From a bacterium (lineage in GTDB: Bacteria; Bacillota; Clostridia; Christensenellales; Aristaeellaceae), in the NCBI GenBank assembly GCA_963624325.1, contig CAVFPH010000042.1, positions 1-18,502 on the forward strand: 18,502 nucleotides of DNA. Direction: 5' to 3'. A program made the translations under genes and the position numbers. The notes beneath the pieces are model-generated. The model was given only the letters and a program-made list of their open reading frames with translations. It ran no database searches and had not been told where the DNA came from. The number at the start of each line of letters is the position of its first letter. Positions within the stretch are counted from its first letter, which is position 1. This document shows positions 2,746 to 18,079 of this stretch, one piece after another.

Positions 2746-3647
2746 GCAAAAAATGCAGGCTCTTCCTTTCCCTGTACGTTCTGCTTCTGCTTTGTTATAC
2801 CGTGTTTGTCGTGCTGGATGCCTTTGTCATCCGCCGTGTAACAGCCACGGTCGATGCAGAGCAGGCCGCAGGCAATCTCGCGGAAGATGCGCAGGAAACT
2901 GCCGTTTCCGATCCCGTCATTACCGAAAACAGCTATCGGGATGAGCATATTTCCGTCACCATCACCACCAAGGAACTGGATGACACCACCGTCTATATTG
3001 CCGACATCACCCTTTCTTCCCCCGAATACCTGAAAACCGCTTTTGCGGATGATGCCTACGGCAAAAACGTAACCGAAAAGACATCTGCCATCGCTGCCCG
3101 AAAGAATGCCATTCTGGCCATTAACGGCGATTACTACGGCTCCCGTGAGCGCGGATACGTGCTGCGGGGCGGCACGCTGTACCGCAGCACGGCCGCTTCC
3201 GATCAGGAGGATCTGGTGATCGGTTCGGACGGCTCCTTTTCCATTATCGAGGAAAGCAAGGTAAGCGCAAACGCCCTGCTTTCACAGGGAGCGATGCAGG
3301 TTTTCTCCTTCGGTCCTGCGCTGGTAAAGGATGGGGAAATTGCCGTAACCACCCGCACAGAGGTCGGCAAGGCCATGGTCAGCAATCCGCGCACGGCCAT
3401 CGGCATCGTCGATTCGCTGCATTACCTGTTTGTCGTATCGGACGGACGCACACGTGAAAGTGCCGGGCTGTCCCTGTACGAGCTAGCGCAACTGATGCAG
3501 TCGCTGGGCGCACAGACGGCTTATAACCTGGACGGCGGCGGTTCCTCCACCCTGTACTTCAATGGCAGCGTCATCAATCATCCGACCACTACCGGCAGGA
3601 ACACGCAGGAAAGGAGCGTGAGCGACATTGTTTACATCGGTTACTGA
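2742..3647 (+). CDS. Membrane-anchored phosphodiester glycosidase family protein (NAGPA/DUF2233-like)
   Basis: ATGA start/stop overlap with the upstream gene. N-terminal TM LFLSLYVLLLLCYTVFVVLDAFVI. Family-typical motifs AINGDYYG and YNLDGGGSSTLYF. Confidence 0.8.
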   Translation: MSKKCRLFLSLYVLLLLCYTVFVVLDAFVIRRVTATVDAEQAAGNLAEDAQETAVSDPVITENSYRDEHISVTITTKELDDTTVYIADITLSSPEYLKTAFADDAYGKNVTEKTSAIAARKNAILAINGDYYGSRERGYVLRGGTLYRSTAASDQEDLVIGSDGSFSIIEESKVSANALLSQGAMQVFSFGPALVKDGEIAVTTRTEVGKAMVSNPRTAIGIVDSLHYLFVVSDGRTRESAGLSLYELAQLMQSLGAQTAYNLDGGGSSTLYFNGSVINHPTTTGRNTQERSVSDIVYIGY

Positions 3648-4026
3648 TCCGCAGCATCGCCAAATGAAAAAGCTCAGCAGACATTTTTTGCTGCTGAGCA
3701 TCGGATGTGCCGTTTTTTCCTTTGTGTATGAGTGCTTCAGCCATCACGTATACGCACTCAGCATGATTCTTGCCTTCCTGTATCCCCTGCTCGGCGGCGC
3801 ATTGGTCTGCCTCATTCTGTCACATCTTCGCCGTCTGCCGCCTTCCTGGGCGCTGGGGACATGGTGCGCAGGCATCATTACCGCCATGCTCGGCAGCCTG
3901 ATGCAGGGCGTGCTGGTCATCTTCGGTACAACCAACCGCTTGATGATCGTCTATCCCCTGCTGGCCGTCGGGCTGTGTCTGGCAGGCCTTTACGGATATC
4001 TGACCGGTTTCCTGCTTCATGACTAA
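3628..4026 (+). CDS. Small polytopic membrane protein (about 4 TM), unknown function
   Basis: Four hydrophobic segments. The start is ambiguous: either TTG at 3628, 11 nt after AAGGAG (3611..3616), or ATG at 3664 (MKKLSRHF...) with no clear RBS. Confidence 0.55.
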   Translation: MFTSVTDPQHRQMKKLSRHFLLLSIGCAVFSFVYECFSHHVYALSMILAFLYPLLGGALVCLILSHLRRLPPSWALGTWCAGIITAMLGSLMQGVLVIFGTTNRLMIVYPLLAVGLCLAGLYGYLTGFLLHD

Positions 4027-4064
4027 GCAGCATCATCGGCTGTCAAATTTCTTTGGCGGCCTTT

Positions 4065-4883
4065 TTATTCTTCCGCCTTCTGCAGATTGCCCTGATATAC
4101 ATAAGATCCGCTGGCGTTGAAGGCAATGTACAGGTCATCCCCCACATGGAATACATCTTCGATTTCCTGGAAGGAGTTTACCTTGACGGTGTTGATATAG
4201 TTGCCTTCCCAATCATAGACCACTATCTGGTTTACCGTGCAGTCCTTACTGTTCTGCGGGAAGTAAATATACTTGTCATCGCAGTCCACGCCCTGCTTTA
4301 CAAGGCCCGTATCAAGGCCAAAGTAGTATGCCACATCGTTGAATTCGCTGTCCAGCACGGCAAAATTAAAGGTGCCGCTGATGCCCACAACATACTGATC
4401 GCGGCTCTCGCAGTAAGCAATGGCATACATGTCATGGCTCAGCTGCTTGGTTTCGGCAATCTGCAGCGTGTCGGTGTCCACAAGGGTGAGCGTATCATAG
4501 CGGGGCTTGTTGTTGGCCACAACCAGCTGCTTGCGGGATGGGTTGTAGCACATGCAGTTGCCGTGGGACAGATCCAGCCCGTACATCGTATCCGCCACCG
4601 TCCAGTCCTGCATGTTTACCTTCCAAATTGAGCACAGGCTGTCCACCTGATTTTCCATAATCATATAGGCATATTCACCATCGGTGGCGGCACCCTGCTG
4701 AACATGATAGTTGTGGTATGCCCACTCGTTGGGGGGAGACAGACGGATTTTTCTGCTCAGCTTGATTACATAGCTGCCGTCCGCCGTGATATCGCGCATC
4801 GTCAACGCCGCTTCATCGGCCAGTGCCGCACAGGTCATGCCGAGCAGGAGGGCAGCCAGCAAAAATGCGATCATTTTTTTCAT
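4065..4883 (-). CDS. Secreted hypothetical protein, Tyr/Asp/Asn-rich and probably all-beta
   Basis: Start trimmed to the internal ATG at 4883, preceded by AAGGAAA. Signal peptide MKKMIAFLLAALLLGMTCAALA. The gene looks more AT-rich by eye than its neighbours. I recognise no family motif. Confidence 0.65.
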   Translation of the reverse strand: MKKMIAFLLAALLLGMTCAALADEAALTMRDITADGSYVIKLSRKIRLSPPNEWAYHNYHVQQGAATDGEYAYMIMENQVDSLCSIWKVNMQDWTVADTMYGLDLSHGNCMCYNPSRKQLVVANNKPRYDTLTLVDTDTLQIAETKQLSHDMYAIAYCESRDQYVVGISGTFNFAVLDSEFNDVAYYFGLDTGLVKQGVDCDDKYIYFPQNSKDCTVNQIVVYDWEGNYINTVKVNSFQEIEDVFHVGDDLYIAFNASGSYVYQGNLQKAEE

Positions 4884-4932
4884 CGTTTTTCTGTTTCCTT
4901 TCTTACGCGAAATTCCATTTCGCGGCAAAAAG

Positions 4933-4961
4933 ATTATAGCATGCCCTGTGTTTTCCCGCAA
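4933..4961 (-). promoter_or_regulatory. Sigma-A-type promoter for the 4883..4065 gene
   Basis: On the minus strand: TTGCGG, a 17-nt spacer, then TGcTATAAT (extended -10). Confidence 0.6.
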
Positions 4962-4975
4962 CCTTATTTGCTTTA

Positions 4976-5004
4976 TTGATCTTCTGTTTCCGCCGTGTTA
5001 TAAT
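4976..5004 (+). promoter_or_regulatory. Sigma-A-type promoter for the cupin gene
   Basis: TTGATC (4976..4981), a 17-nt spacer, then TGtTATAAT (TATAAT at 4999..5004). Confidence 0.65.
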
Positions 5005-5038
5005 GCAGCTGAAATTCATTCAAAGGAGATTGAAAGCA

Positions 5039-5371
5039 ATGAACGGACCGATGAAGAACATCGATAAAGCGCAGGTGCTGGTGCTGCGCGATCAGGTTGC
5101 CTATCAGGACGGGCAGATCGTCAGCAAAACCCTGGCGCAGAACAGCAGCGTAAGCATCACCCTGTTTTCCTTTGACAAAGGTGAAGAAATCAGCTCCCAC
5201 AAGGCCGGCGGCGATGCTTTTGTTACCTGCCTGGACGGCGAGGGCGAAATCACCATTGACGGGGAAAAATACATTCTGCACACCGGCGAATCCATCGTGA
5301 TGCCCAAGGATCACCCGCATGCGGTATTCGGCAAGGAAAAATTCAAGATGCTGCTGGTAGTCGTCTTCTGA
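5039..5371 (+). CDS. Cupin domain protein (Cupin_2-like)
   Basis: Start trimmed to ATG 5039, 10 nt after AAGGAG (5023..5028). Small single-domain protein with the cupin-like segments ISSHKAGGDAFVTCLDGEGEITIDGE and GESIVMPKDHPHAV. Confidence 0.8.
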   Translation: MNGPMKNIDKAQVLVLRDQVAYQDGQIVSKTLAQNSSVSITLFSFDKGEEISSHKAGGDAFVTCLDGEGEITIDGEKYILHTGESIVMPKDHPHAVFGKEKFKMLLVVVF

Positions 5372-5392
5372 TTCAGCAGCCAAAACAGTACC

Positions 5393-5426
5393 GGCGCTTT
5401 TCATTGCGAAAAGCGCCGTTTTTTTG
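5393..5426 (+). terminator. Rho-independent terminator of the cupin gene
   Basis: 10-bp stem GGCGCTTTTC / GAAAAGCGCC with loop attgc, followed by GTTTTTTT. Confidence 0.85.
5396..5418. repeat. Copy 1 of an identical 23-nt hairpin repeat (GCTTTTCATTGCGAAAAGCGCCG)
   Basis: Exact match to 8696..8718, same orientation, 3300 bp apart. This copy forms the core of the cupin terminator. Confidence 0.9.
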
Positions 5427-5436
5427 CGCGCCGATG

Positions 5437-5490
5437 CAGAAAAAGCAAATGCCTCTTTCGCAAGGCAGCGCCTTCGAAAGGGGCATTTGC
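5437..5490 (-). terminator. Rho-independent terminator of the flavin reductase gene
   Basis: On the minus strand: GCAAATGCCCCTTTCG ... CGAAAGAGGCATTTGC, a 16-bp stem with one G-U pair, followed by TTTTTCT. It begins 8 nt after the stop. Confidence 0.75.
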
Positions 5491-5497
5491 AGTTGTT

Positions 5498-7600
5498 TTA
5501 TTTATTCAGTGCGTTTGCAGCCTGTTCGCCGGCGATCTTGCCGCTTGTAGCGCCAAATGTCAACTGGGTACCGCTGAAATAGTACTGATTGTAATACACA
5601 CCATTGGTCATTGCACCGGTAGCATAAAGTCCTTCAATGATGCTTCCATCCTCACGCAGTACGTGCTGATTTGCATCCGTCACAACGCCGCCCAGCGTAT
5701 CACAGCAGCCGGGAAGAATGCGAACCAGATAATACGGACCCGCTTCGGAGATGGGAATGAGATATTCAGCTTTTTTGCCAAAGTCGATATCCTCGCCTGC
5801 CGCTACGATTTCCTTGTAGCGATTGACGGTTGCTTCAAAGGTATCGACATTCATGCCAGCCTTTTCGGCAACTTCGCGAATGCTGTCGCCCTTGATAACC
5901 TCTCCGCAGTCGATGCCCTGCTCCGCAATTTCGGCAGCCTTTTCAGACAAATCTGTATACAGGCACCAATACGGGGCGTTATTCAGCTTGAACATGGCCA
6001 TATCCTGGGAAGAATATGCCTGCGCTTCGTTCATGAAGCGGTTGCCGTCACTGTCAACAACAAGGCGGCGATAGGTTGTTTCGTCCAGACCTTCAATCGG
6101 GCTTGCATCCTGCATAAAGATGTCGCAATACATGCTCTGCGAATGCATCAGCGCGGAGCAACGCGGGCGGCCGTTGTGAATCCACTGATCCTCATACAAT
6201 GCCGCGCCGATTGCTTCGGCCATCAAAAGGCCATCGCCCGTATTGCCAACCGAGGCATAGGAGGAAACCTCGGGCAGTTCGGGGATCAAGCGGTTGAGCA
6301 GATCGGGATTTTCAGAGTAACCGCCGGTAGAAAGGATTACGCTGTCGGCATAAACGTCCAGCTCGCCTGTTTTCGTTTCAGCACGAACGCCAACCACTTT
6401 GCCATTTTCGACGATCAGTTCGGTCGCGCGCGTGTCGGTGTACAGTTCCATCCCCTGATCAATGCATTTATCTCTCAAAAGTGTCAGGAGCTTGCCTGCG
6501 CGGGTGCCTTCAGGAATGCTTTCCACATCGAGACGCACCATCGCCATTCCACGATCAGCGATTCCCTGGTAAGGGATAACGGTCGCGCCCTGTTCGACCA
6601 GCCAATTGATGGTAAACATACTCTGAACAAGCTGGAATTTCAGTCTGTCAATGTCGGGATAAATCGACTCACGGTAGCTGACACTCTGATATTCCATCCA
6701 ACGCGTGACAGCCGCATCGAGTGTATCTTCTTCTTCCGTCAGGTGATACCCTTCGTTTTCATCAACTTCGCAGATCATGAACGTGCCCAACGAATTCTTG
6801 GCACTTCCGCCGGTGATGGACAGCTTTTCCAGCATAATTACATTCGCACCCAGTTCAATGGCGCGCATGGCTGCAGTTGTACCAGATAGACCGGAGCCAA
6901 CGACAACAATGTCCGTATGCAGCACCTTGGGTTCAGCGTTCTTTTCATGAACCACCGGTGTGCTGAACTGCGCAGTCGTTGCGCCCGCCTGCGTCAGACA
7001 ATCGCGCACGGCGGATTTAATTGCATTCGTCGTCAGGCTCGCACCGGTTACTGTGTCCACACCAGTGCTCTGGTTTGCGATGATTTCCTCCGGCAATGTG
7101 TCAATTGCGATAGAGCCAATAGCGAATGTATCGAAGTTTTCGACTACTTCAATTCCGGTAATGGCGTTCTCAGATACAGTTACGGTAAGCGTAAGCAAGC
7201 CGCCGTAGCTGTTGGCCGTCGCAGTATAAGTTCCTGCAGTCATTGTTACATTGCTCTGCTGCACACCCATAATCTGGTTGTAAGCATTCTGCGCGGCGAG
7301 AAGAACCGCTTTCGAAGTAACAGTTGCACCTGTTACGCCGTCAACGTCAATGCTTCCTGTGGCCGACATGGCAGCAGACATTGTTTCAATGGCTTTTCCA
7401 CCTATTGTCGGCGTTTCATTTTCTCCGTTTATAACAACTTCCGTGATCGCGCCGTCCGTCACCGTCAGCTTTACGCTTACGACACCGCCGAAGCCCTGCG
7501 CTGCGCCTTCCGCCGTCAGGACGCCGGTTTCAGCGTTGGCGGCTGCACAGAAAGTGAAAAGCATGCAAACTACAAGAAGCCAGGACAAAAGATGCTTCAT
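5498..7600 (-). CDS. Exported FAD-dependent oxidoreductase with two N-terminal FMN_bind domains (fumarate/urocanate-reductase-like flavin reductase)
   Basis: Start trimmed to ATG 7600, preceded by GGGAGGAAAA. Signal peptide MKHLLSWLLVVCMLFTFCAAANA. Two FMN_bind-like modules carry flavinylation-type motifs DGVTGATVTS and DTVTGASLTT. The FAD dinucleotide fold reads DIVVVGSGLSGTTAAMRA...LEK, and the C-terminal motif is GLYATGAMTNG. Confidence 0.85.
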   Translation of the reverse strand: MKHLLSWLLVVCMLFTFCAAANAETGVLTAEGAAQGFGGVVSVKLTVTDGAITEVVINGENETPTIGGKAIETMSAAMSATGSIDVDGVTGATVTSKAVLLAAQNAYNQIMGVQQSNVTMTAGTYTATANSYGGLLTLTVTVSENAITGIEVVENFDTFAIGSIAIDTLPEEIIANQSTGVDTVTGASLTTNAIKSAVRDCLTQAGATTAQFSTPVVHEKNAEPKVLHTDIVVVGSGLSGTTAAMRAIELGANVIMLEKLSITGGSAKNSLGTFMICEVDENEGYHLTEEEDTLDAAVTRWMEYQSVSYRESIYPDIDRLKFQLVQSMFTINWLVEQGATVIPYQGIADRGMAMVRLDVESIPEGTRAGKLLTLLRDKCIDQGMELYTDTRATELIVENGKVVGVRAETKTGELDVYADSVILSTGGYSENPDLLNRLIPELPEVSSYASVGNTGDGLLMAEAIGAALYEDQWIHNGRPRCSALMHSQSMYCDIFMQDASPIEGLDETTYRRLVVDSDGNRFMNEAQAYSSQDMAMFKLNNAPYWCLYTDLSEKAAEIAEQGIDCGEVIKGDSIREVAEKAGMNVDTFEATVNRYKEIVAAGEDIDFGKKAEYLIPISEAGPYYLVRILPGCCDTLGGVVTDANQHVLREDGSIIEGLYATGAMTNGVYYNQYYFSGTQLTFGATSGKIAGEQAANALNK

Positions 7601-7652
7601 GGGTTTTCCTCCCTTGTTTTCAATAAACATCGACAAGCTGCTTGCGGGGCAC

Positions 7653-7690
7653 ATTATAGCACCGATGGGAAAGCAAGGGAAGTGAATTTT
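7653..7690 (-). promoter_or_regulatory. Candidate activator-dependent promoter of the reductase gene
   Basis: On the minus strand, TGcTATAAT (TATAAT = 7658..7653) is a perfect extended -10, but there is no good -35 hexamer 16 to 18 nt upstream. Confidence 0.45.
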
Positions 7691-7734
7691 TTGCAATGTG
7701 TCTTATGCTTAGCGTTGCAAAAAGCGCAACGATT

Positions 7735-8634
7735 TTACAATTCGCGGAAGACACGCACATAAGAATCCGCAGCATAAGAAATCAGCGGATTGTTATTGCG
7801 CTTTTTATAAAGCAAGCAAAAGCATGTGTCAACCGGCGGCATATCCAGGAACGGACGTGCAACCAAGGAATCCGGAAGATTGCGCAGCACACCGGCAGAA
7901 AAAATTGAAACACCCCGCCCGGAAAGTACGGGCCATAGAATATCGTCACGGCTATAGGGGCGCACAATTACGTTGGGCGCGTTTCCCTTCCATGTACACC
8001 CCTGAATAATCGCGTCATATAGTATGGGGCTTCGTTCTCTCTCCCACATGAAAAGCGGCTGCCCGGCCAGATCGGCCGCGGTGAGCCCCTGCTTTTCTGC
8101 AAGCGGAGAATTGGCAGAAACTGCAACCATAAACGGAACGTTTTTCAGCGGAACACAAACAAGCGTATCGTCCATCGTCTGCAAAGCCGCCCTGAATCCC
8201 AGCAGCAGATCCAGCTTATCCGTTTTCAAATCTTCGCAGGCAGAAGGACGGTATGATCGAGTCAAACTGATTTTAGCGTCGGGAAAGCGGCTGCACAGGT
8301 CGTGAAAAGTTTGCATGATAATGTCCGGAAAGCTCATGTTCAGCATGGCGATTCTTATTTCATTCGCCCCGTTTTCGACAGTCTGGTGCAGTGCCATCCG
8401 TGTTTCGTCATATGCGTCCATCATCTTTTGCGCATGTTCACGAAATACACTTCCGGCGTTGGTCAACGACATTACGCCTGCATGGCGTTCAAACAGCTTT
8501 ACCCCGAATTCTTCTTCCAGATGTGCAATCTGTCTGCTTGCAGTAGATGGGCTGATAAACATCCGGTTGGCAGCATCGGTGATGTTCAAGTGTTCCGCAA
8601 CCATAAGAAAGCAAGCCAGGCTTTCCATATTCAT
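7735..8634 (-). CDS. LysR-family transcriptional regulator
   Basis: N-terminal HTH LNITDAANRMFISPSTASRQIAHLEEEFGVKLFER, followed by a LysR-type substrate-binding domain of appropriate length. The start is probably ATG 8634 (MNMESL...), downstream of GAGGAAA. The tracked ORF begins at a GTG at 8652. Confidence 0.85.
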   Translation of the reverse strand: MNMESLACFLMVAEHLNITDAANRMFISPSTASRQIAHLEEEFGVKLFERHAGVMSLTNAGSVFREHAQKMMDAYDETRMALHQTVENGANEIRIAMLNMSFPDIIMQTFHDLCSRFPDAKISLTRSYRPSACEDLKTDKLDLLLGFRAALQTMDDTLVCVPLKNVPFMVAVSANSPLAEKQGLTAADLAGQPLFMWERERSPILYDAIIQGCTWKGNAPNVIVRPYSRDDILWPVLSGRGVSIFSAGVLRNLPDSLVARPFLDMPPVDTCFCLLYKKRNNNPLISYAADSYVRVFREL

Positions 8635-8695
8635 ATCGTATCGTTTCCTCACTTTAGATATGGGTTTATTGAAAGGCCCGAGCGGCCATCAGGCT

Positions 8696-9248: not shown

Positions 9249-10247
9249 TTACTCCAATGAGGACAAAATGCTGTTCATCTGCTCAATCATTTCCGCATCC
9301 TTTAAGCGGAATTTGATCTCCACACGGCGGGAACGCTCCTGATCCTCCGCGCCGTTTTCATCGTAAATCGGATCCGAAAAGCTGCGTCCCTGCGCGGTAA
9401 TGATGGACTGCAGGCGTGTCTTCTGCGCTTCGGTCAGGGTGCTCATGTTCAGGCAGTATTTGGCCACATTCAGCGCACGGTTCTGCGACAGCTCCAGGTT
9501 ATGCTCATAGCTGCCGGTAGAGTCCGTATGCCCTTCGATGATGATCTCGGCCACATAATCCCGATACTCATCCTGCAAAAGCACGCTCAGGTAGACGGGA
9601 ATCAGGCGGTTGAGCTGGGATAGTCCTTCGGGCTTTAGCGTGCTGCTGCCTGTCTCAAACATCAGCGTGCTGTCCAGCACGATATCGCCGGTATTTTCAT
9701 CCACCGTTGCGGAAATCCGTGCGGCAGCCAGCTGTGTGCTCAGTTCCTCCACAATGCGCGTGCGGATGCCCAGTATGTTGCTGATCTGCATCTGGTAATT
9801 GCTCAGTTCCTGTTCCTGATTGGCCAGCACCAACTGCATGGCATCAATGCGGTTCTGCTGATCGGCCAGATCGGCTTCCTTGAGCACAATCTGCGCCAGC
9901 AGCTCTTCATTTTCAGCCTCGCGCTCACTCAGCTTCACTTGGGCGGCATTGAGATCCTGCTCCTTTGTATCCAGCTGAATCTGGATAGCGGACAGCTCTT
10001 CTTCCTTGCCCATCAGCTCCACCCGCGTTGTCTCCAGATCCTGTTCCTTTTGGCTTAGGGTAATCTGCGCGGCATCCAGCTGCGTCTGCTGCTCTCCCAC
10101 CTGATCCAGCAGCGTATAATAATGATAAATGCACAGGGTAATGGCCAGTATGAACATCAGCAGCAGCGAACACATCATATCCGAATAGGATATCCAGTGT
10201 GTACCGCCGTCGCCGCCCCGGCGCGCACGGCTCAAGTGTCTGCTCAT
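9249..10247 (-). CDS. MotB/ZorB-like protein: TM plug with conserved Asp, long coiled coil, C-terminal OmpA-like peptidoglycan-binding domain
   Basis: Start trimmed to ATG 10247, preceded by AAGGAGG and 2 nt after the upstream stop. MotB-type segment HWISYSDMMCSLLLMFILAI (Asp23). Heptad-like E/K/Q/L stretch of roughly 120 aa with repeated KEQDL. OmpA-like motifs IIIEGHTDSTGSYEHNLELSQNRALNVAKY and RSRRVEIKF. Confidence 0.85.
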   Translation of the reverse strand: MSRHLSRARRGGDGGTHWISYSDMMCSLLLMFILAITLCIYHYYTLLDQVGEQQTQLDAAQITLSQKEQDLETTRVELMGKEEELSAIQIQLDTKEQDLNAAQVKLSEREAENEELLAQIVLKEADLADQQNRIDAMQLVLANQEQELSNYQMQISNILGIRTRIVEELSTQLAAARISATVDENTGDIVLDSTLMFETGSSTLKPEGLSQLNRLIPVYLSVLLQDEYRDYVAEIIIEGHTDSTGSYEHNLELSQNRALNVAKYCLNMSTLTEAQKTRLQSIITAQGRSFSDPIYDENGAEDQERSRRVEIKFRLKDAEMIEQMNSILSSLE

Positions 10248-10249
10248 GC

Positions 10250-11851
10250 TCAGGCCTCCTTGCTTGCCTGCTGCGTCAACGCTTCTCCTGCCGTCTGCAT
10301 GCATGCCGACATATCGCCCAGCGCACGCTGTAATTTGGACAAAGCGGAAATAACCCCCTCGGTGCCTGCGTTCAGGCGCTCGGTTTTATCCGCATAGGCG
10401 CCCTGCGCTGCCTTGGCCGTTTTTTCGATGCTTTCCAGCTTGCCGTCCAGCAGGGACACCATTGCATGCATATTTTCTTCAAACAGCCCCATGGTGCGCG
10501 ACAGTCCGCCGCTGATGTTCTCCACAAAGGATGTATAGCTCTGGCTGAGCTCCCGGCTGCTGTCCCGCATGGCCGCGGAAATCTGCTTGCTGTCCGCCCC
10601 CGATGCATCGGCCTGCTGGTGCACAGCCTCCAGCACACGCCCGCTCCACTGGGCGTATTCCTGCATGCTGCTCTGCAGCTGTTCATGCCCCGAGCGCAAG
10701 GTCATCATATAATCGGTCTGCTCCTGCACAGCTGCGTGCATGGCGTTTAGCAGATCCTGCGTCTTTTGCGCAAAATCCCCCTGCTGGCCGCTGATGGACG
10801 CGGCATCCGCCTCGTATTCCGCCATGCGGTCGGCAATCTGATGCATCAGCGTGCCGACATCCTGCATGCTGTCCATGATGGCCGATGCCGCCTGCAGGGA
10901 AGTATTGAGCGTATCATAATCCATGCGCTGCGATTGATTGATGGCCGTCAGGGTTTGTCCAAGCTGGGTAAACTGCCCGCCCAGCGCCCCGTTCATGCGG
11001 CTGATAAACGCCCCGACCAGCTGATTCAGCCCGTCAATCTGCGTCTGTGTCTGCCCGGCGATGAAGTTATTCATGGATTGTGCCACAGGCACCAGGCTCT
11101 TTTCCACCGCGGTGGTCATGCTGCTGCTTACGCGGTCGCCGATTTCCGTTACCGCATGGCGCAGGAACGCCGCGCGGTCCTCCTGCTGACAGATTGCCTG
11201 CACATTGTCGCTGAGGGGCTGCTGCATCACAAACTCCGTAAAGGCCTCATAAAACTCATCCAGTGCCTTTTGCGCCGATCCGATTGCGGCATGGTTCAAA
11301 ATATTGAAGGCCAGGGAGCAGGAGCAGCCTGCAATGGATGTGCCGAATGCAAAGTTCATGCCGTTGATCATATCCGATATGCCCGCCATGGTGCTGGCGG
11401 CATCCGACAGATCCAGTGCTCCCAGACCGCGCACAAGTCCGACAAATGTGCCCAGAATGCCCAGCGATGTCAGAATGCCCGGTATCACCTCACCCAGCTG
11501 GGTATGGCAATGGGCATATATGACGGTGTCATCGTTAATATAATCTTCCACGTTGCAGTTCATGCCGCGGCTGTCCAATTGTTCCGCATTTACCAGAAAG
11601 CGCTTCCACGCCGTGTGCATGCGCTTGCCAAGGAACATCGGATCCTGCCACACCGGATGCCCGACATCCTTGATGGTCATCATTTCCAGCCGATGCACCG
11701 CGCGGCGCAGGGCACGTGCGCAGGATCGGCATACAAATGTGCACTTGAAAAAGCCCGTCAGGCACACAATCGCAATGGCGCCATATATCAATAAATCAAT
11801 CAGGCTTCCGGCAGAGAAAATCCCCGAAATTTTTTGCGCAAAATCCTGCAT
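10250..11851 (-). CDS. MotA/ExbB/TolQ-family channel protein with a long C-terminal helical tail (ZorA-like architecture)
   Basis: RBS GGGAGGAAGG. TM1 at residues 16..36, then a basic Cys-rich loop. TM2 carries the MotA/ExbB-type motif GILTSLGILGTFVGL. TM3 is FAFGTSIAGCSCSLAFNIL. About 340 aa of Q/S/A/M-rich, helix-looking sequence then runs to the C-terminus. Confidence 0.8.
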   Translation of the reverse strand: MQDFAQKISGIFSAGSLIDLLIYGAIAIVCLTGFFKCTFVCRSCARALRRAVHRLEMMTIKDVGHPVWQDPMFLGKRMHTAWKRFLVNAEQLDSRGMNCNVEDYINDDTVIYAHCHTQLGEVIPGILTSLGILGTFVGLVRGLGALDLSDAASTMAGISDMINGMNFAFGTSIAGCSCSLAFNILNHAAIGSAQKALDEFYEAFTEFVMQQPLSDNVQAICQQEDRAAFLRHAVTEIGDRVSSSMTTAVEKSLVPVAQSMNNFIAGQTQTQIDGLNQLVGAFISRMNGALGGQFTQLGQTLTAINQSQRMDYDTLNTSLQAASAIMDSMQDVGTLMHQIADRMAEYEADAASISGQQGDFAQKTQDLLNAMHAAVQEQTDYMMTLRSGHEQLQSSMQEYAQWSGRVLEAVHQQADASGADSKQISAAMRDSSRELSQSYTSFVENISGGLSRTMGLFEENMHAMVSLLDGKLESIEKTAKAAQGAYADKTERLNAGTEGVISALSKLQRALGDMSACMQTAGEALTQQASKEA

Positions 11852-11886
11852 GCGGCCTTCCTCCCTTAACGATGGATGCTGCTTCT

Positions 11887-11915
11887 ATTTTAACGGATAA
11901 AAGCACAAAATGCAA
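11887..11915 (-). promoter_or_regulatory. Sigma-A-type promoter of the stator-like operon
   Basis: On the minus strand: TTGCAT (11915..11910), a 17-nt spacer, then TAAAAT (11892..11887), about 35 nt upstream of the ATG. Confidence 0.6.
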
Positions 11916-11969
11916 CAAAATTGTTACAAGTTGAAAAGATTATTTAATCATTTTGTCTGTTTTCAGGGA

Positions 11970-12656
11970 TTATATATCGTATTTCAGGCAGATCCGCTCC
12001 AGCTTTTCACCGATCGGGCGGCTGAGCAGGGCAAGATACAGCACGTTGGCAACGATGTAGGATACTGTGTGCGGCAGGGCCGAAAGGAGTGCCGCTCCGT
12101 AAAGGCCCAGACTGAACGTGCCGTGATACCACAGTACCGTCCAGATATCCATGATAAAGGAATAGGCTGCCCCCGCAATCAGACCGCAAAACATCAGCAT
12201 TCCGCGGCTCTTTTTCAGCGTGCGGGACAGATAGCCTGCAATCAGCCCGATCATCCCCCATGCAAACATCTGGAAGGGGGTCCATGGCCCCTGCCCAAAA
12301 TAGAAATTGCTGATTGCCGCGCTGAGCGCGCCCACAAGAAAGCCCGATTCTCCGCCCAGGTACATGCCCGTCAGAATTGTCATGGCCGTCACGGGCTTCA
12401 GCAGCGGAATAAACCGCCCGGCTGCCGTCAGCGCCGTCAAAGCGGAAACCAGCACCAGCCGCCGATGTCCCGTGCGCCTGTGTTCAAAGCCTGCGGCAAA
12501 CAGCACCAGCGCGCACACGGCAATCAGCCAGGCAATCAGCGCGTAGTGCTTTTCCCGCAGCAGAAATACACCCGCCGCAACCAGGGCGGGAACAATCAGG
12601 AACGGAATCGCGCGGCGCAGAATACGGCGGGTGCGGGCATTTCGGATCACTATCAC
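11970..12656 (-). CDS. ECF transporter S (substrate-capture) component, candidate corrinoid-specific
   Basis: Polytopic hydrophobic protein, including FYFGQGPWTPFQMFAWGMIGLIAG. There is no in-frame ATG near the upstream stop. GTG 12656 overlaps the ATPase stop as GTGA, and a second GTG lies at 12650. It is the last gene of the riboswitch-controlled operon. Confidence 0.7.
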   Translation of the reverse strand: MIVIRNARTRRILRRAIPFLIVPALVAAGVFLLREKHYALIAWLIAVCALVLFAAGFEHRRTGHRRLVLVSALTALTAAGRFIPLLKPVTAMTILTGMYLGGESGFLVGALSAAISNFYFGQGPWTPFQMFAWGMIGLIAGYLSRTLKKSRGMLMFCGLIAGAAYSFIMDIWTVLWYHGTFSLGLYGAALLSALPHTVSYIVANVLYLALLSRPIGEKLERICLKYDI

Positions 12657-14281
12657 AGCTGTTTTTCTGCCTCCTTGATGCGAAGCGATGCAATCTCCTC
12701 TGCGCAGATTGCCGTATCGCAGATGCCGCGCGCCATCCTGTTGGCCGGGGTTGTGTAATAGTGATTTCCCGCAAAAAATGCATGCGGCTCGGCGCACGCA
12801 ACAATTTCTCCCCTGAAAAGCAGAGCGCAGCGGTCGGCACATGCCGCGGCAAAAGAAACATCATGTGTTACACACAGCACCGTCAACCCTTTGCTGCGAA
12901 GCGCCCGAAGCAGCTCCGTCATTTTTTCGCACGCAAAGGCATCCAGCCCCTTGGTGGGCTCATCCAGCAGCAAAAGTTTCGGGTGTGCCGCCAGTGCCCT
13001 GCACAAGGCCAGCGCCTGCTGCTCTCCGCCCGACAGATCATAAGGGTGCCGTTTCAGCAAAGGCGTAAAATCCATGGGAAAGTTTTCGGTATCGGCGTGT
13101 GATTTTTTCAGTTCCTCCTCCACCGTGCTGTGCATAAAAAGCGTCTGCACATCCTGCGGCAGCAGCGCAAGGCAGTCCCGGTAAAGCGTTTGTCCCGTAT
13201 AGGCCCGTTGTTTTTTCCCGAATATCATGATATTTCCCGCATACGGCCGCTGGAGCCGCGCCGCGCAGGCAAGCGCTGTGGATTTTCCGGAGCCGTTTCC
13301 GCCCAGCAGGCAGAAGATCTCCCCCGTATGAACTGTCAAATTCAGGCCGCGCAGTACATCGGGCACATTGCGCTCATAGCGGAAATAAACATCCTTCATT
13401 TCCAGAGCCGGCGGCGTATCGGCAGCAGCGCCTCCTCCAAAGGTCGGCCTATCGCCAATCAGCCTTTGGCTTTCCAGCATGCGCCTGCCCTCCCGCACGG
13501 TTAGCGGGCAATCGGCTGCATGCCACATTTCCGCCACGCGTGCGGCAGCCGGCATTGCTTTGGACAGCACGGGATGTCCGCGCAGCTCGGATACAACCTT
13601 TCGGGTTTCACCATCGGCAATCAGGCAGCCACCCTCCATGGCAAGCATTTTGCCCGACAGCGGAACGGCCTCCTCCAGCCGATGCTCAATCAGCAGGACC
13701 GTCAGGGACAATTCCCGGTTGAGCCGCTGCAAAGTAGATAAAAAGCTGCCCACCGCTATCGGATCCAGCTGCGCCGTCGGCTCATCCAGCAAAAGGATAT
13801 CAGGCTGCATCACCATCACGGCCGCCAGGCAGAGCAGCTGCTGCTGTCCGCCGGAAAGGGAAGCTGTATCCCGTCCAAACCAATCCTCAATGCCGAAATA
13901 GCAGGCTGTTTCGGCCACTCTTTGCCGAATCACCGTCTGCGCAAGTCCCATATTTTCAAGCCCGAAGGCCAGCTCGTGCCACACTTTGTCCGTCACAATC
14001 TGCTGCTGCGGATGCTGCGAAACAAAGCCGATGCGGCAGGCGCTCTCCCGCTCGGACATGTCACCAATCGGCTTTCCGTTATACAGAATCTCCCCCGTCA
14101 TCGTCCCTTTCGGGGCGATTTCCCGCTTCAGGCACCGCAGAAGGGTGGACTTTCCGCTGCCGGTTGCTCCGCACAGGATGCAAAAATCCCCCTTATCCAG
14201 TTTGAAGGAAACCTGCTTTACCGCCTGATTGCCGCATTGCGGATAGGAAAAGCTTAAATTTTTGACCTCAAGCAGTGCCAT
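12653..14281 (-). CDS. ECF transporter ATPase, fused duplicated nucleotide-binding domains (EcfA1A2-like)
   Basis: RBS GGAGGAG. Two Walker A motifs (GATGSGKST, GGNGSGKST), two ABC signatures (LSGGQQQ, LSGGEQQ) and two Walker B motifs (LLLDEPT twice). Confidence 0.9.
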   Translation of the reverse strand: MALLEVKNLSFSYPQCGNQAVKQVSFKLDKGDFCILCGATGSGKSTLLRCLKREIAPKGTMTGEILYNGKPIGDMSERESACRIGFVSQHPQQQIVTDKVWHELAFGLENMGLAQTVIRQRVAETACYFGIEDWFGRDTASLSGGQQQLLCLAAVMVMQPDILLLDEPTAQLDPIAVGSFLSTLQRLNRELSLTVLLIEHRLEEAVPLSGKMLAMEGGCLIADGETRKVVSELRGHPVLSKAMPAAARVAEMWHAADCPLTVREGRRMLESQRLIGDRPTFGGGAAADTPPALEMKDVYFRYERNVPDVLRGLNLTVHTGEIFCLLGGNGSGKSTALACAARLQRPYAGNIMIFGKKQRAYTGQTLYRDCLALLPQDVQTLFMHSTVEEELKKSHADTENFPMDFTPLLKRHPYDLSGGEQQALALCRALAAHPKLLLLDEPTKGLDAFACEKMTELLRALRSKGLTVLCVTHDVSFAAACADRCALLFRGEIVACAEPHAFFAGNHYYTTPANRMARGICDTAICAEEIASLRIKEAEKQL

Positions 14282-15129
14282 TGAATGCGTTCTCCTCCTT
14301 CCGCCAGGGCAGGCAGCAGGCAGAGCATGCCGTACGCGGCCATCACTGCCTGCGCGGGTAAAGAATGTTCGGATGCCGTGATCTCAGGATAATATTCAAA
14401 CCGCAGGCTGCCGCTGAAAATCCCCCACAGCGCCGCCGCCGTCAGAATCAGCGAAATGCTCAAAAAAGCCGCATCCGCCCGCGTGAACCGAAATATTGCA
14501 TACCGTGTTCTGCGGCCCGTGCCATAGCCACGCGCCGCCATGCTGTCCGCCGTAACAATCCCGTTTTCCAGTGCCCAGGTTGTCAGAATGGAAAATTCCC
14601 GTGCGCGCCCCGCTGCCGCGTCGGGCAGGTTTTCATCCCGATATAATCCCAGCCCAAGCTGCGCCCGATGAATGCGCTCTCCCTGCCGCGCAAAAAGCGG
14701 CACAAACCGCAGTGCCATGCTGACCGTCAAGGCAAAGGACGGGGATATCCCTCCCAGCAGATACAGCAGCTTATCGCTTGTCAGCGTGGCGCTCAGCAGC
14801 CGAAACCAGCCGATCATGCCCACAATCATGCCGGATGCCGCCATGCCGTATAAGAGCGCCTCCAGCGTGAAGGGCCGATCGTTGATGACAAACAGCACCG
14901 TTACGCCGTCATGATAAAAAAGCGGGTTCAGCAGTGACATCAGTAGAAAAATCATTATGCCCGCAGCCGCCATGCGCAGGCTCATCCTGCCATGAAGCAG
15001 CAAAAGCATCGTGCATCCGAGCAGCGACAGGACAATCAGCGCGGGATGCAGAGACAGCATGCCAATGCTCATGACGCCCGCAAAATAGCAAAGCTCGGTG
15101 ACGGGATGCAGTTTTTCCAGCCCTCTCAT
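14254..15129 (-). CDS. ECF transporter transmembrane T component (CbiQ/EcfT family)
   Basis: Start trimmed to ATG 15129, preceded by GGGAGGAA. Polytopic membrane protein in the position expected beside the ECF ATPase. It overlaps the ATPase start by 28 nt. Confidence 0.85.
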   Translation of the reverse strand: MRGLEKLHPVTELCYFAGVMSIGMLSLHPALIVLSLLGCTMLLLLHGRMSLRMAAAGIMIFLLMSLLNPLFYHDGVTVLFVINDRPFTLEALLYGMAASGMIVGMIGWFRLLSATLTSDKLLYLLGGISPSFALTVSMALRFVPLFARQGERIHRAQLGLGLYRDENLPDAAAGRAREFSILTTWALENGIVTADSMAARGYGTGRRTRYAIFRFTRADAAFLSISLILTAAALWGIFSGSLRFEYYPEITASEHSLPAQAVMAAYGMLCLLPALAEGGERIQWHCLRSKI

Positions 15130-15142
15130 TTTGTTCCTCCCG

Positions 15143-16714
15143 TCACGTAAAATCCCGCCCCATATCGCAGGTATACAGCCACTCGATCTTATCTCCGTCC
15201 GACAGCTGATATTCGCCGCAGCCGACATTCGGAATTTCGCCGTTTACGCGGTACATCCATCCGGACAGCTCACCAAAGTCAAACTCATAAAGGTGGCAGA
15301 TGCCCGCCACATAGGCAGATGTGCCGCTTCGGCTGTCCAATTGCAGCTTGTTTTCCCGAACGGCTCTTACCAAAACATCGTAAACCGTATCCCCCTGCGA
15401 AATTGCATAAGTTGTTTCCGCAAGGATGATGCCGTTCTCCGGGATATAGCGTGCATCGGTCTGCCCCTTCACGGTGTCGCAGCGGATGGTCAGCATCACA
15501 CTGTCGACGCTCTCTGATGTGTTTGCCGTCGCCGCTGCGTAGTAGTCCGATGCGCTTTCGATGCGCAGGGAGCACAGCACCGCCGCCAGCGCGATGCAGA
15601 TCACCCATACCGCAATATAATTTTTGACGTTCCGTTTTTTTGCAAGGAACAGCAGGAGGCCTGCAAGCAAACCGGCAGCGGCAATCGCAATCACCGCCCA
15701 GGCCTTCCAGCCCGGATGCACAGCAGAAGATGCTGTCTCTGTCGTTTGCGCATCCAGATGATAGAACGCGCCGCGTCCGCTTTGAAAGCGTTCCAGGGCA
15801 ATCAGGGCACTGAGTGCCTGCACGGTTGCTATGCTGCTCTTTTCGCCGTTTTCGGCATGGGAAAAACTGTTGTCCGCCAGCTGATAGCGAAGCATCGCAT
15901 CCGTCACCGTACAGCCGTTTTTGATAAACCTTTCGTCGCTTGCCGGGTCGATATTCAGGGCGCATAGGGCAATGATCACCTGTGCTGCACTTTCGCAGTT
16001 CGGCGTGCCCATGCTGCAGTAACCTCCGCTCTCGGTCTGGATTTTGCTGAGCAGCGCAAGGGCATTGTCAACGGCTGTCCGGACATCATCCGAATCGGAT
16101 GCATAAGGGGCAAGTGCCTGCAGTGCCATTGCCGTTACATCGGCATCCGCCTGTGCCCCCATCACTGCCCAGCCGCCGTCCGAAAGCTGCAGGCTCAGCA
16201 GTCCCGAGATGGCCTGCTCTATTTCTTCATCCGTACTTTCTGGCAGGTTGCTCAGCAGATGCAATCCGTAAATCCAGCTCATAACGCCCTGTCTGCCGAT
16301 ATCCTCGTTTCGTGCGCAGGATACAAAGGGATGATCCGCACGGCCGCAGGCCGCAAGCACCAGGGCCAGTTTCAGCCTTGTCGCCGCGCCTGCAGGCGGC
16401 GATGTTTCCACAAATTGCTGCAGTGCATCGGCATAGGCAGAATAGTCCGGGCCCGATATATACTGATGCAGCGCCAGCACGTACCACTCGGCATTTCCGC
16501 CGATATCCTCACACAAAGCACCATTCAGCCATGCCTGCACACTGTCTGCTCCGTCGGCAGCTTGCTCGGATGCCAGGATTTCGTCAATCCGCTGTGCCTC
16601 CGACGGCGCTGCCGCCTGTCCGCATCCGGCACAAACAAGCAAAAACAGCCCCAGCAAAAGGGCAGCCATGCACCTTTTGCCAAGGCTGAAACGTATTGTT
16701 TGAGCAGTCATCAT
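15143..16714 (-). CDS. Lipoprotein-like surface protein: prenyltransferase/terpene-cyclase-like alpha/alpha-toroid, TM hairpin, C-terminal DUF4430 (transcobalamin-like beta domain)
   Basis: ATGA overlap with the upstream gene. Signal peptide with Cys (LFLLVCAGCGQ). Toroid-repeat motifs LQLSDGGWA and IQTESGGYC. Two TM helices at residues about 336..383, flanking KKRNVKN. The C-terminus carries DUF4430-like LSGWMYRVNGE...LSDGDKIEWLY. Confidence 0.8.
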   Translation of the reverse strand: MMTAQTIRFSLGKRCMAALLLGLFLLVCAGCGQAAAPSEAQRIDEILASEQAADGADSVQAWLNGALCEDIGGNAEWYVLALHQYISGPDYSAYADALQQFVETSPPAGAATRLKLALVLAACGRADHPFVSCARNEDIGRQGVMSWIYGLHLLSNLPESTDEEIEQAISGLLSLQLSDGGWAVMGAQADADVTAMALQALAPYASDSDDVRTAVDNALALLSKIQTESGGYCSMGTPNCESAAQVIIALCALNIDPASDERFIKNGCTVTDAMLRYQLADNSFSHAENGEKSSIATVQALSALIALERFQSGRGAFYHLDAQTTETASSAVHPGWKAWAVIAIAAAGLLAGLLLFLAKKRNVKNYIAVWVICIALAAVLCSLRIESASDYYAAATANTSESVDSVMLTIRCDTVKGQTDARYIPENGIILAETTYAISQGDTVYDVLVRAVRENKLQLDSRSGTSAYVAGICHLYEFDFGELSGWMYRVNGEIPNVGCGEYQLSDGDKIEWLYTCDMGRDFT

Positions 16715-17406
16715 GCCGCCTGCTGATCGGCCTCATCGGCAGCGATCACGCAGCAGGGGGGCACCAGCGTCATGCTTTCACTGGTTGCGCTGACCACATC
16801 GCCCGCGCTGACGGTGATAACGGCCATTCCGTTTTCATCCGTCTTGACGCCGGTGGAAATGCCGTTTACGGTAATTTCCGCATCCGCAACGGGGGAAGCT
16901 ACAGGCGCATAGGTAACAGGATCAAAGCCGATGGCGGAAAGCGTCAGGGTTACTTCGCCGGCAGCTGCGGTGTTCACATCAAAGTAGGTATAGGTATCGG
17001 ACCATGTGACAAGATCGCTGTACACATAGGCCGTTACATAGTCGCCGTCGCTGAGCGCATCGGACAAGCCCATGGCCATGCTGTTGTTGACATAGTAACC
17101 ATAGGAACCGCCGTTTTCAACGCCCCACAGGCGGGTAATCATCAGGCCGTAGCTGCCCATCTCGGCGGTAAATCCCGCCTCGGCGCCGCCTTCAAAGGCA
17201 TCCTCATGCGCCAGATACAGGGCATCGGCGATGGTCAGGGCGCCGTCCTCATCGGCATCGGTCAGGGTTACGGGATGCTGTACCAGCACAAGCCCGTCGC
17301 AGGCGATGGTAACATAAACAGTCGGCGCCGCTTCCTCGGCCACAGCGGCAGGAAGCAAGGACAGCATCAGCATCAGGGCAAGAACAAGGGAAGTTGCTTT
17401 TTTCAT
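16711..17406 (-). CDS. Secreted DUF4430 (transcobalamin-like beta domain) protein with a C-terminal Ig-like/beta-sandwich module
   Basis: RBS AAGGAG. Signal peptide MKKATSLVLALMLMLSLLPAAVA. DUF4430-like pattern VYVTI...TIADAL...ITRLWGVENGGSYGYYVNN...LSDGDYVTAYVY, then EITVNGISTGVKTDENGMAVITV. Confidence 0.8.
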   Translation of the reverse strand: MKKATSLVLALMLMLSLLPAAVAEEAAPTVYVTIACDGLVLVQHPVTLTDADEDGALTIADALYLAHEDAFEGGAEAGFTAEMGSYGLMITRLWGVENGGSYGYYVNNSMAMGLSDALSDGDYVTAYVYSDLVTWSDTYTYFDVNTAAAGEVTLTLSAIGFDPVTYAPVASPVADAEITVNGISTGVKTDENGMAVITVSAGDVVSATSESMTLVPPCCVIAADEADQQAA

Positions 17407-17741
17407 GGTTCATTTTCTCCTTTTTGTATTTCGGATAGCGCGCAGGATGCGCGGAAATCCCGATTTTTCATTTGCTTTTCTATTTTGCACTGCGTGGCGC
17501 GGCGGCGCTGAAGAATGCGCTTTTCCATGCGTTTTTCGCGTCTGTCGGGATCACGCGGCGGCTTGATGCCCGCCGCCTCCAATGCGCGCGGCCACGGGCC
17601 CAGAAAAGCCTTGATCGCCGCCACCTGTTCGGGCAGGAAATCGTCCCTTTTCGGATATCGGCTTTCTCCCCGTGCCGACAGGGTATCGCGCATATCCGTA
17701 AGCAGACGGATGGCGCTGACGCGGTCATACTGCCCCTTCAT
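17403..17741 (-). CDS. Small basic protein with a homing-endonuclease-associated-repeat-like domain; first ORF after the riboswitch
   Basis: Start trimmed to ATG 17741, preceded by GGGAGGA. The segment PKRDDFLPEQVAAIKAFLGPWPRALEAAGIK resembles the HNH_repeat consensus (...FGSW..AL..AGL). Arg/Lys-rich C-terminal half. ATGA overlap with the downstream gene. Confidence 0.55.
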   Translation of the reverse strand: MKGQYDRVSAIRLLTDMRDTLSARGESRYPKRDDFLPEQVAAIKAFLGPWPRALEAAGIKPPRDPDRREKRMEKRILQRRRATQCKIEKQMKNRDFRASCALSEIQKGENEP

Positions 17742-17795: not shown

Positions 17796-17894
17796 CCATG
17801 TCAATCAAGCGCCATCGGCCTTGGCCGAAAAGCGCACAAAACACAGGCGGCTGCGCTTTTCAAAAACCAAAAGCCGCTGGCAGATGCCAGCCTC

Positions 17895-18015
17895 CGCAGG
17901 CATGCTTGGCAAGTATCCCGACTTACGGGCAATCACCCGATCACGGTAATGGTTGTTGCGACGGATTTTCACCGAACTTCCCTCTCATCCGATTTCTCGG
18001 AACCAAGCACGCTGA
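17895..18015 (-). promoter_or_regulatory. Cobalamin riboswitch aptamer (compact form)
   Basis: On the minus strand: AGGGAA (17983..17978), GGTGAAAATCC (17973..17963) and the B12-box-like AGTCGGGATACTTGCC (17923..17908). P1 pairing is TGCTTGG (18009..18003) with CCAAGCA (17909..17903). Confidence 0.75.
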
Positions 18016-18050
18016 ATGTTCAATTGTTTGTCCGCATTGCGGACGCGCAC

Positions 18051-18079
18051 AGTATAGCATGAAAAATTTTTTGCGTCAA
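18051..18079 (-). promoter_or_regulatory. Sigma-A-type promoter of the riboswitch-controlled operon
   Basis: On the minus strand: TTGACG (18079..18074), a 17-nt spacer, then TATACT (18056..18051). Confidence 0.7.

Follow-up and report, generated by a model that had tools for sequence, protein, structure and literature searches.

A bacterial transcobalamin-like protein with a transmembrane hairpin between its two domains, a probable corrinoid-capture subunit of B12-regulated ECF cassettes in Clostridia

The window analysed here, that is, the whole stretch of 18,502 nucleotides that forms contig CAVFPH010000042.1 of an Aristaeellaceae assembly (Clostridia; GCA_963624325.1), carries a cobalamin riboswitch followed by a cassette of six genes, all on the minus strand. 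They lie in the order small open reading frame (ORF), p231 (a secreted protein of 231 residues), a gene for a protein of 523 residues in which two transcobalamin-like domains are fused, and the energy-coupling factor (ECF) transporter genes EcfT, EcfAA' and S. The start and stop codons of adjacent genes overlap or almost touch, consistent with a single transcription unit. The fused protein is the main subject of this work; the evidence presented below indicates that it is probably the extracellular corrinoid-capture subunit of a dedicated, B12-repressed vitamin B12 importer of the ECF type. The features of the cassette are:

18051..18079, minus strand: promoter-like site TTGACG-17-TATACT with a TG extension, upstream of the riboswitch (consensus scan 10/12, a pattern match only)
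17891..18022, minus strand: cobalamin riboswitch aptamer RF00174 (50.6 bits against a gathering score of 31.5, E 3.3e-10)
17876..17891, minus strand: terminator-like hairpin and T-run directly after the aptamer (pattern scan), a candidate expression platform
17403..17741, minus strand: small conserved ORF of 112 residues counted from MKGQ, first gene of the cassette (tblastn)
16711..17406, minus strand: p231, the secreted 231-residue partner (signal peptide, synteny, Pfam)
15143..16714, minus strand: fused transcobalamin-like protein (ORF of 523 residues)
14254..15129, minus strand: EcfT of the CbiQ family (Pfam PF02361, 26.3 bits against a cut-off of 25), its start set at the ATG at 15129, behind GGAGG
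12653..14281, minus strand: fused EcfAA' ATPase with two ABC_tran domains (Pfam PF00005, E 4.8e-55, two stretches)
11970..12656, minus strand: CbrT-related ECF S component (phmmer match to 6fnp_A, Pfam ECF S families), starting at a GTG at 12656 that overlaps the stop codon of the upstream gene

Within the fused gene, the following parts are distinguished, with residue numbers (aa) counted from the N-terminus:

16613..16714, minus strand: signal peptide, aa 1-34, with a non-canonical, lipobox-like VCAGC (sequence, hydropathy)
15755..16612, minus strand: alpha/alpha toroid, transcobalamin-alpha-like, aa 35-320 (Pfam PF00432; AlphaFold2 with predicted local distance difference test score, pLDDT, above 90; Foldseek; hhalign)
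15644..15709, minus strand: transmembrane (TM) helix 1, aa 336-357, predicted to run from outside to inside (AlphaFold2 helix 336-357, hydropathy, kept in homologs)
15623..15643, minus strand: basic, predicted cytoplasmic loop AKKRNVK, aa 358-364 (four Lys or Arg in seven residues)
15566..15622, minus strand: TM helix 2, aa 365-383, predicted to run from inside to outside (AlphaFold2 helix 363-382, hydropathy)
15146..15505, minus strand: DUF4430/SLBB transcobalamin-beta-like domain, aa 404-523 (Pfam PF14478, Foldseek 5no0 and 3u7z, hhalign)

The original prediction, made from the letters of the DNA, had read an alpha/alpha toroid in the N-terminal half and a DUF4430/transcobalamin-beta-like domain at the C-terminus, separated by two TM helices around a basic loop. 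Pfam, AlphaFold2 and Foldseek agree on both domains, and the coordinates it gave for domains and hairpin are correct, the TM helices falling at 15566..15709; N365, last residue of the loop as then written (KKRNVKN), is the first residue of the TM helix 2 segment. In Pfam, DUF4430 is found at aa 441-515 with an E value of 1.3e-17 and 64.4 bits against a cut-off of 23.8, and the Prenyltrans toroid at aa 147-310 with 29.7 bits, barely over its cut-off of 26.5; weaker squalene-cyclase matches also overlap the toroid region, and an NCBIfam scan of the fused protein adds nothing above its cut-offs.

When a profile of 50 homologs is compared with the PDB, its matches are class II terpene cyclases (E about 1e-12), with drimenyl diphosphate synthase and squalene-hopene cyclase found at 1e-12 to 1e-10. 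Together with the Prenyltrans match, and with the label terpene cyclase/mutase family that NCBI gives to one related gene, these best solved relatives by sequence profile would suit a toroid that is an enzyme, terpene cyclase- or prenyltransferase-like, acting on an envelope lipid or on a corrinoid. However, class II terpene cyclases have a two-domain active site, and the fused protein has one six-hairpin toroid only; its sole DxDD string (DSDD, aa 207-210) is located where the family consensus shows no majority residue, and the conserved D-x-D-V-T-A motif at aa 190-195 is without the third Asp of the class II cyclase D-x-D-D. A single toroid without a conserved DxDD makes an enzymatic role unlikely. 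The toroid is moreover predicted to be extracellular and is paired with a ligand-binding SLBB domain, and the full-length fold search described next favours the B12 carriers, all of which renders this alternative very improbable.

Structure prediction followed by superposition on transcobalamin or intrinsic factor had been proposed as a check of the fold. An AlphaFold2 model computed from an alignment of 50 sequences (pLDDT 87.4, predicted TM-score 0.69), used in place of a single-sequence run that reached a pLDDT of 43 and was discarded, presents a helical toroid at aa 39-311, helices at 336-357 and 363-382 and a beta-grasp domain at aa 404-515, with low-confidence linkers at aa 325-334 and 384-401. 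Compared with the PDB by Foldseek, ranks 1 to 15 are all occupied by transcobalamin, intrinsic factor and haptocorrin (rat, human and bovine), aligned over about 500-540 columns with both domains in order and E values of 6e-9 to 6.5e-7, whereas terpene cyclases rank after them and match the alpha domain only. The isolated beta domain of transcobalamin, 5no0, is matched with a target-normalised TM-score (TMt) of 0.75, and 3u7z is matched as well. The fused protein thus shares with the eukaryotic carriers the same two folds in the same order, their beta domain also being placed in the DUF4430 Pfam family; the carriers, in contrast, are soluble and join their domains by a plain flexible linker instead of a TM hairpin. 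Burroughs, Balaji, Iyer and Aravind (2007, Biol Direct 2:4; PMC1796856) defined the transcobalamin-like clade of SLBB domains by a beta-grasp core with a two-strand insert after the helix. In the AlphaFold2 model the beta-grasp domain has a helix at 444-454, followed by strands 459-462 and 468-472 and then by the later core strands, and as modelled it is a member of this clade.

In the signal peptide, the n-region is basic and aa 15-31 form the hydrophobic core, and the two hairpin helices score 2.7-2.8 on the Kyte-Doolittle scale. Of the 120 best homologs, 119 share the whole arrangement, in which signal and toroid are followed by two TM helices with 8-12 residues between them and by a C-terminal domain of some 130 residues. 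Conservation was expressed as the mean frequency of the commonest residue per region over 195 sequences, and is highest in the beta domain (0.69), followed by the alpha domain and the cytoplasmic loop (0.59 each), linker 2 (0.46), the TM helices (0.44), the signal peptide (0.28) and linker 1 (0.23). The loop follows the family consensus KKRxxKN; the residues K360, R361, K364 and N365 predominate at their positions, each being found in 83-90% of these sequences. Among the same homologs, Y391 and Y392 (nt 15539..15544), located just outside TM helix 2 in the flexible linker aa 384-403, most of which is modelled with low confidence, are 95-98% conserved, and K337, at the outer end of TM helix 1, is 81% conserved, a pattern suggestive of some specific interaction at the membrane surface.

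As had been proposed, the predicted position of both domains is extracellular, and the prediction draws on the signal peptide, the basic loop, the architecture of the homologs and the split form of Latilactobacillus curvatus described below. A lipoprotein-like N-terminus had also been read, which would tether the protein at three points. The signal peptide is there; its lipobox is non-canonical, VCAG|C with a Cys at position -3, where a canonical one was taken as [LVI][ASTVI][GAS]C at the signal-peptide end. Even a relaxed pattern appears in only 19 of 118 homologs, most of which show AxA type-I cleavage sites; this count rules out the lipoprotein triple tether as a family feature, and three-point tethering is therefore at best specific to the window protein.

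In L. curvatus the two modules are encoded as separate proteins. The alpha protein carries a signal peptide and, at its C-terminus, LPQTG, a TM segment and a basic tail (LPQTG-TM-KRQVEHR); in the beta protein, MSKKR and a TM segment form the N-terminus (MSKKR-TM) and the DUF4430 domain is C-terminal. Compared by hhalign, the toroid half of the fused protein matches the former over 256 columns (E 3e-16) and the beta half matches the latter (E 1e-24). Their genes lie upstream of T and S genes homologous to those of the window (29% identity each in BLASTP), and a gene for a two-domain ATP-binding cassette (ABC) ATPase occupies the same position as EcfAA', a correspondence of position. L. sakei Lsa1840 (alpha-like) and Lsa1839 (beta-like), in the ECF operon lsa1836-1840, are likewise homologous modules in the same gene order. 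In Latilactobacillus, then, the alpha protein is LPXTG-anchored after two extra repeats and the beta protein is attached through a signal anchor at its N-terminus and a long linker rich in Ser and Gln, whereas in the window one chain is formed by way of the hairpin. Since both L. curvatus modules must be extracellular, they give independent support to the topology of the fused protein. Joining a 'TM plus basic tail' to a 'basic N-terminus plus TM' yields exactly TM, basic loop, TM; the hairpin is therefore most simply seen as the scar of a gene fusion between a C-terminally anchored alpha protein and a signal-anchored beta protein.

Concerning the transporter, the ECF neighbour seen at first reading corresponds to EcfT, EcfAA' and S, directly downstream of the fused gene. 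In a phmmer search of the PDB the S component has a sole significant match, 6fnp_A (E 5.2e-8), the next having E > 1. 6FNP is the ECF-CbrT vitamin B12 transporter of Lactobacillus delbrueckii, a proven importer of B12 and cobinamide (Santos et al. 2018). The six-gene cassette, with its T component, two ATPase domains, CbrT-homologous S component and riboswitch, is that of a dedicated ECF-CbrT-type importer. With a riboswitch at the head of the operon and a CbrT relative as its S component, the link to corrinoids is therefore stronger than was known when the fused protein was first singled out.

The window system shares with ECF-CbrT a homologous S component and the presence of an EcfT and of ABC ATPases, and differs from it in several respects. 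The L. delbrueckii CbrT has 182 residues and relies on a shared ECF module, whereas the window has a dedicated, co-operonic one; no extracellular binder is described in the ECF-CbrT paper (Santos et al. 2018), whereas two extracellular proteins are co-encoded here. Unlike in ECF-CbrT, the window S component begins with an N-terminal extension of about 55 residues containing two extra hydrophobic helices by hydropathy, and EcfT runs about 85 residues past its Pfam CbiQ match, with two more hydrophobic helices. The BLASTP alignments to L. curvatus cover the C-terminal region of EcfT and begin at aa 33 of S, and so include only the second of its extra helices. The extensions therefore go with the transcobalamin-like system overall and not with the hairpin specifically.

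The family is large. One search yields at least 973 homologs of the fused protein, and clusters at 50% identity number 1,746 at E<=1e-30 and 11,531 at E<=1e-3. Relatives are encoded in 476 species-representative genomes, from which 80 species-level Clostridia loci are listed and were analysed as the related loci. The 80 genomes all belong to the Bacillota and nearly all to the Clostridia, with Oscillospiraceae, Lachnospiraceae, Ruminococcus and Christensenella, and are mostly gut or rumen assemblies; the closest species representative among those listed has 66% identity, and where the source gives a name to these relatives it is 'DUF4430 domain-containing protein'. As judged by tblastn with the window proteins, most of the 80 loci keep the gene order of the cassette: EcfT is syntenic in 73, and the ECF genes lie upstream instead in 6. 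The riboswitch heads the cassette in 14 of the 16 loci scanned with Rfam (7/8 and 7/8), the alternative gene order included.

These distributions bear on whether the protein delivers its ligand to the transporter at all. It could be a surface corrinoid sink or piracy receptor without direct transfer to S, in the manner of Bacteroides BtuG, which would fit a surface-exposed, B12-regulated protein with the transcobalamin fold, the few loci without ECF genes within 8 kb (L042, L046, L069) and the occurrence of giant multi-domain relatives of 1,500-2,200 residues. We hold this to be improbable: in about 70 of the 80 loci the fused gene adjoins or lies near EcfT-AA'-S in one transcription unit, and the short membrane-proximal tethers suit local delivery. 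Extracytoplasmic corrinoid capture under B12-riboswitch control is known from the Bacteroides surface lipoproteins BtuG and BtuH and from the BtuF of BtuCDF, which have unrelated folds and serve TonB-dependent or type II ABC transporters, not ECF ones, and are regarded here as functional analogues only.

As to the giant relatives themselves, a locus of Vescimonas fastidiosa (L082, pMM35_01) encodes two, at 1352..7954 and 11166..14459, with no ECF genes alongside; they are a 'DUF4430 domain-containing protein' of 2,200 residues and a 'prenyltransferase/squalene oxidase repeat-containing protein' of 1,097. The library search also returned representatives of 1,540-2,179 residues with 4-6 matched stretches.

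Two further genes of the cassette are of interest. p231 lies upstream of the fused gene in 74 of the 80 loci and has more than 1,000 homologs, called 'hypothetical protein' where the source names them; tandem-duplicated forms of about 500 residues occur. It consists of a signal peptide, an N-domain (aa ~28-135) and an immunoglobulin-like C-domain, CarboxypepD_reg/DUF4198 in a Pfam analysis of 43 members. The N-domain bears a dockerin/EF-hand-like loop, DxDxDGxLTxxDAL, and has no match in Pfam or the PDB. By eye this N-domain resembled a second SLBB paralogue, as Burroughs et al. 2007 (PMC1796856) would predict, and this candidate was rejected, hhalign giving probabilities of 1.9% and 8.8%. Most p231 homologs, as compared in L030, L032, L064 and L080, have a TM anchor and a basic tail at their C-terminus; this anchor is absent from the window p231 and its closest relatives (L003, L004, L010, L011, L051), which finish with ...LVPPCCVI... 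In this subclade p231 is probably released or held in some other way.

The small ORF is present in 47 of the 80 loci (tblastn), where its motif is IKAFLGPWPRALEAAGIK. The encoded protein is basic, with the near-invariant motif RxPxRsDFsxxEVxAIKAFLGPWPRALEAAGIKPPR, and is predicted to be cytoplasmic, having neither a signal peptide nor a TM helix; its sole Pfam match is a weak HNH_repeat under the cut-off.

Taken together, these data point to a protein that probably captures B12-type vitamins at the cell surface for the co-encoded transporter. In the proposed mechanism, TM helix 1 would bring the exported chain back to the cytoplasm, the KKRNVKN loop would stay inside, and TM helix 2 would export the C-terminal beta-grasp (SLBB/DUF4430) domain, so that both transcobalamin-like domains would be held just above the membrane on flexible tethers of ~15 and 20 residues. 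The alpha and beta domains would then close on the corrinoid, as the two domains of transcobalamin do, and pass it on to the CbrT-like S component, whose gene is the third downstream. The same functional prediction, B12 scavenging, was made by Burroughs et al. 2007 (PMC1796856).

Several observations weigh against this reading. The full-length Foldseek superpositions on transcobalamin, intrinsic factor and haptocorrin are loose (TMt 0.41-0.53, root-mean-square deviation 9-15 Å), which points to a superposition of the alpha domain alone; the closed transcobalamin sandwich is thus not reproduced by the model, whose arrangement differs in this from the closed holo form of the eukaryotic carriers. 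None of the three carriers is reached at E<=10 by the 50-homolog HMMER profile against the PDB, other sequence and profile searches of the PDB also failed to reach transcobalamin, and PF01122, which we take to be the family model of eukaryotic cobalamin-binding proteins, is not among the Pfam matches of the fused protein at E<=1; the alpha domain is therefore linked to transcobalamin by fold and not by sequence profile. The general view of ECF transporters is that they work without a separate binding protein. Lastly, the L. curvatus operon has no cobalamin riboswitch, and the homologous system of L. sakei has been reported as a heme importer (bioRxiv 10.1101/864751).

The latter two points raise the question of whether the same architecture might serve another ligand, heme or another tetrapyrrole, as proposed for L. 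sakei Lsa1836-1840. Deletion of that operon affects heme uptake, and heme was docked between the alpha-like and beta-like proteins (bioRxiv 10.1101/864751); the riboswitch-free L. curvatus cassette is homologous to that of the window in its alpha, beta, T and S genes, with an ATPase matched by position. In L. sakei, however, heme binding was modelled and not measured (same preprint), and the Clostridia cassette, unlike that of L. curvatus, is headed by a cobalamin riboswitch, both in the window and in the 14 of 16 loci mentioned, with CbrT as the only significant solved relative of its S component. For the Clostridia proteins we consider heme a quite improbable ligand.

A closer association with the transporter than simple capture can also be envisaged. 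The fused protein might be a stoichiometric subunit of the ECF complex, its hairpin docking on the extra TM helices of S (N-terminal) and EcfT (C-terminal). Its conserved elements are the KKRxxKN loop and the near-invariant pair of Tyr outside TM helix 2, and the transcobalamin-like clamp would stand directly over the toppling S component. We regard this as possible but on balance doubtful; if true, it would be the first demonstration that an ECF transporter can require an extracytoplasmic substrate-binding module, and p231 would be a further, structurally new corrinoid-handling partner.

Returning to the capture subunit, much of what is described here has a published precedent, and the computational observation largely repeats published inference. 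Burroughs et al. 2007 (PMC1796856) already described bacterial SLBB domains of the transcobalamin clade fused to a toroid on either side, in Gram-positive bacteria without B12 biosynthesis, with signal peptides and surface anchors and in operons with genes for a CbiO-like ATPase and a CbiQ-like membrane protein, frequently with a second extracellular protein that is a paralogous SLBB protein; they also proposed lateral transfer of the fused form to animals as the source of transcobalamin. In the 2019 preprint (bioRxiv 10.1101/864751), the alpha-like and beta-like extracellular proteins of L. sakei hand off to the ECF S component. The original prediction had presented the membrane-held protein as a novel hand-off device and as a hint at the origin of the eukaryotic B12 carriers; in view of both papers for the first idea, and of the 2007 paper for the second, neither is new. 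The window protein resembles those of 2007 in having its toroid N-terminal to the beta-grasp domain, in being a surface protein and in its CbiO/CbiQ operon. It differs in its tethers, which in the earlier set are cell-wall anchors and polysaccharide-binding domains, and its operon has, in place of a paralogous SLBB protein, p231 without detectable SLBB homology. A TM hairpin between the two domains is mentioned in the text of neither Burroughs 2007 nor the preprint, and literature searches on DUF4430, PF14478, transcobalamin-like and CbrT found no description of such a form; the hairpin looks to be the only new element. The consistent B12-riboswitch and CbrT-type context in Clostridia is not stated in either paper.

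Competition for corrinoids shapes gut communities, and their capture by Gram-positive anaerobes is poorly understood compared with that by Bacteroides (BtuG/BtuB) or E. coli (BtuFCD). The family described here occurs in at least 476 species-level Clostridia genomes and is coupled to a B12 riboswitch and a CbrT-type ECF importer. Should both binding and hand-off be borne out, ECF transporters, usually described without binding proteins, can use one, the fused protein would offer a tractable bacterial model for the transcobalamin fold, and the 2007 proposal on the origin of the animal B12 carriers would become open to experiment.

A final point concerns the other genes of the window. Those downstream of the cassette look unrelated to it; the set, all on the minus strand, comprises a fumarate-reductase-like flavoprotein with FMN_bind and FAD_binding_2 domains, a LysR regulator, an OmpA-domain protein and a 533-residue coiled-coil-like protein, and the genes are located at:

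5498..7696, minus strand
7735..8652, minus strand
9249..10304, minus strand
10250..11851, minus strand

Three genes at the far end of the window, at 85..879, 1024..2745 and 2742..3647, all on the plus strand, make up a set with a His_kinase/HATPase sensor fragment, a Cthe_2159 carbohydrate-binding protein and a NAGPA phosphodiester glycosidase.

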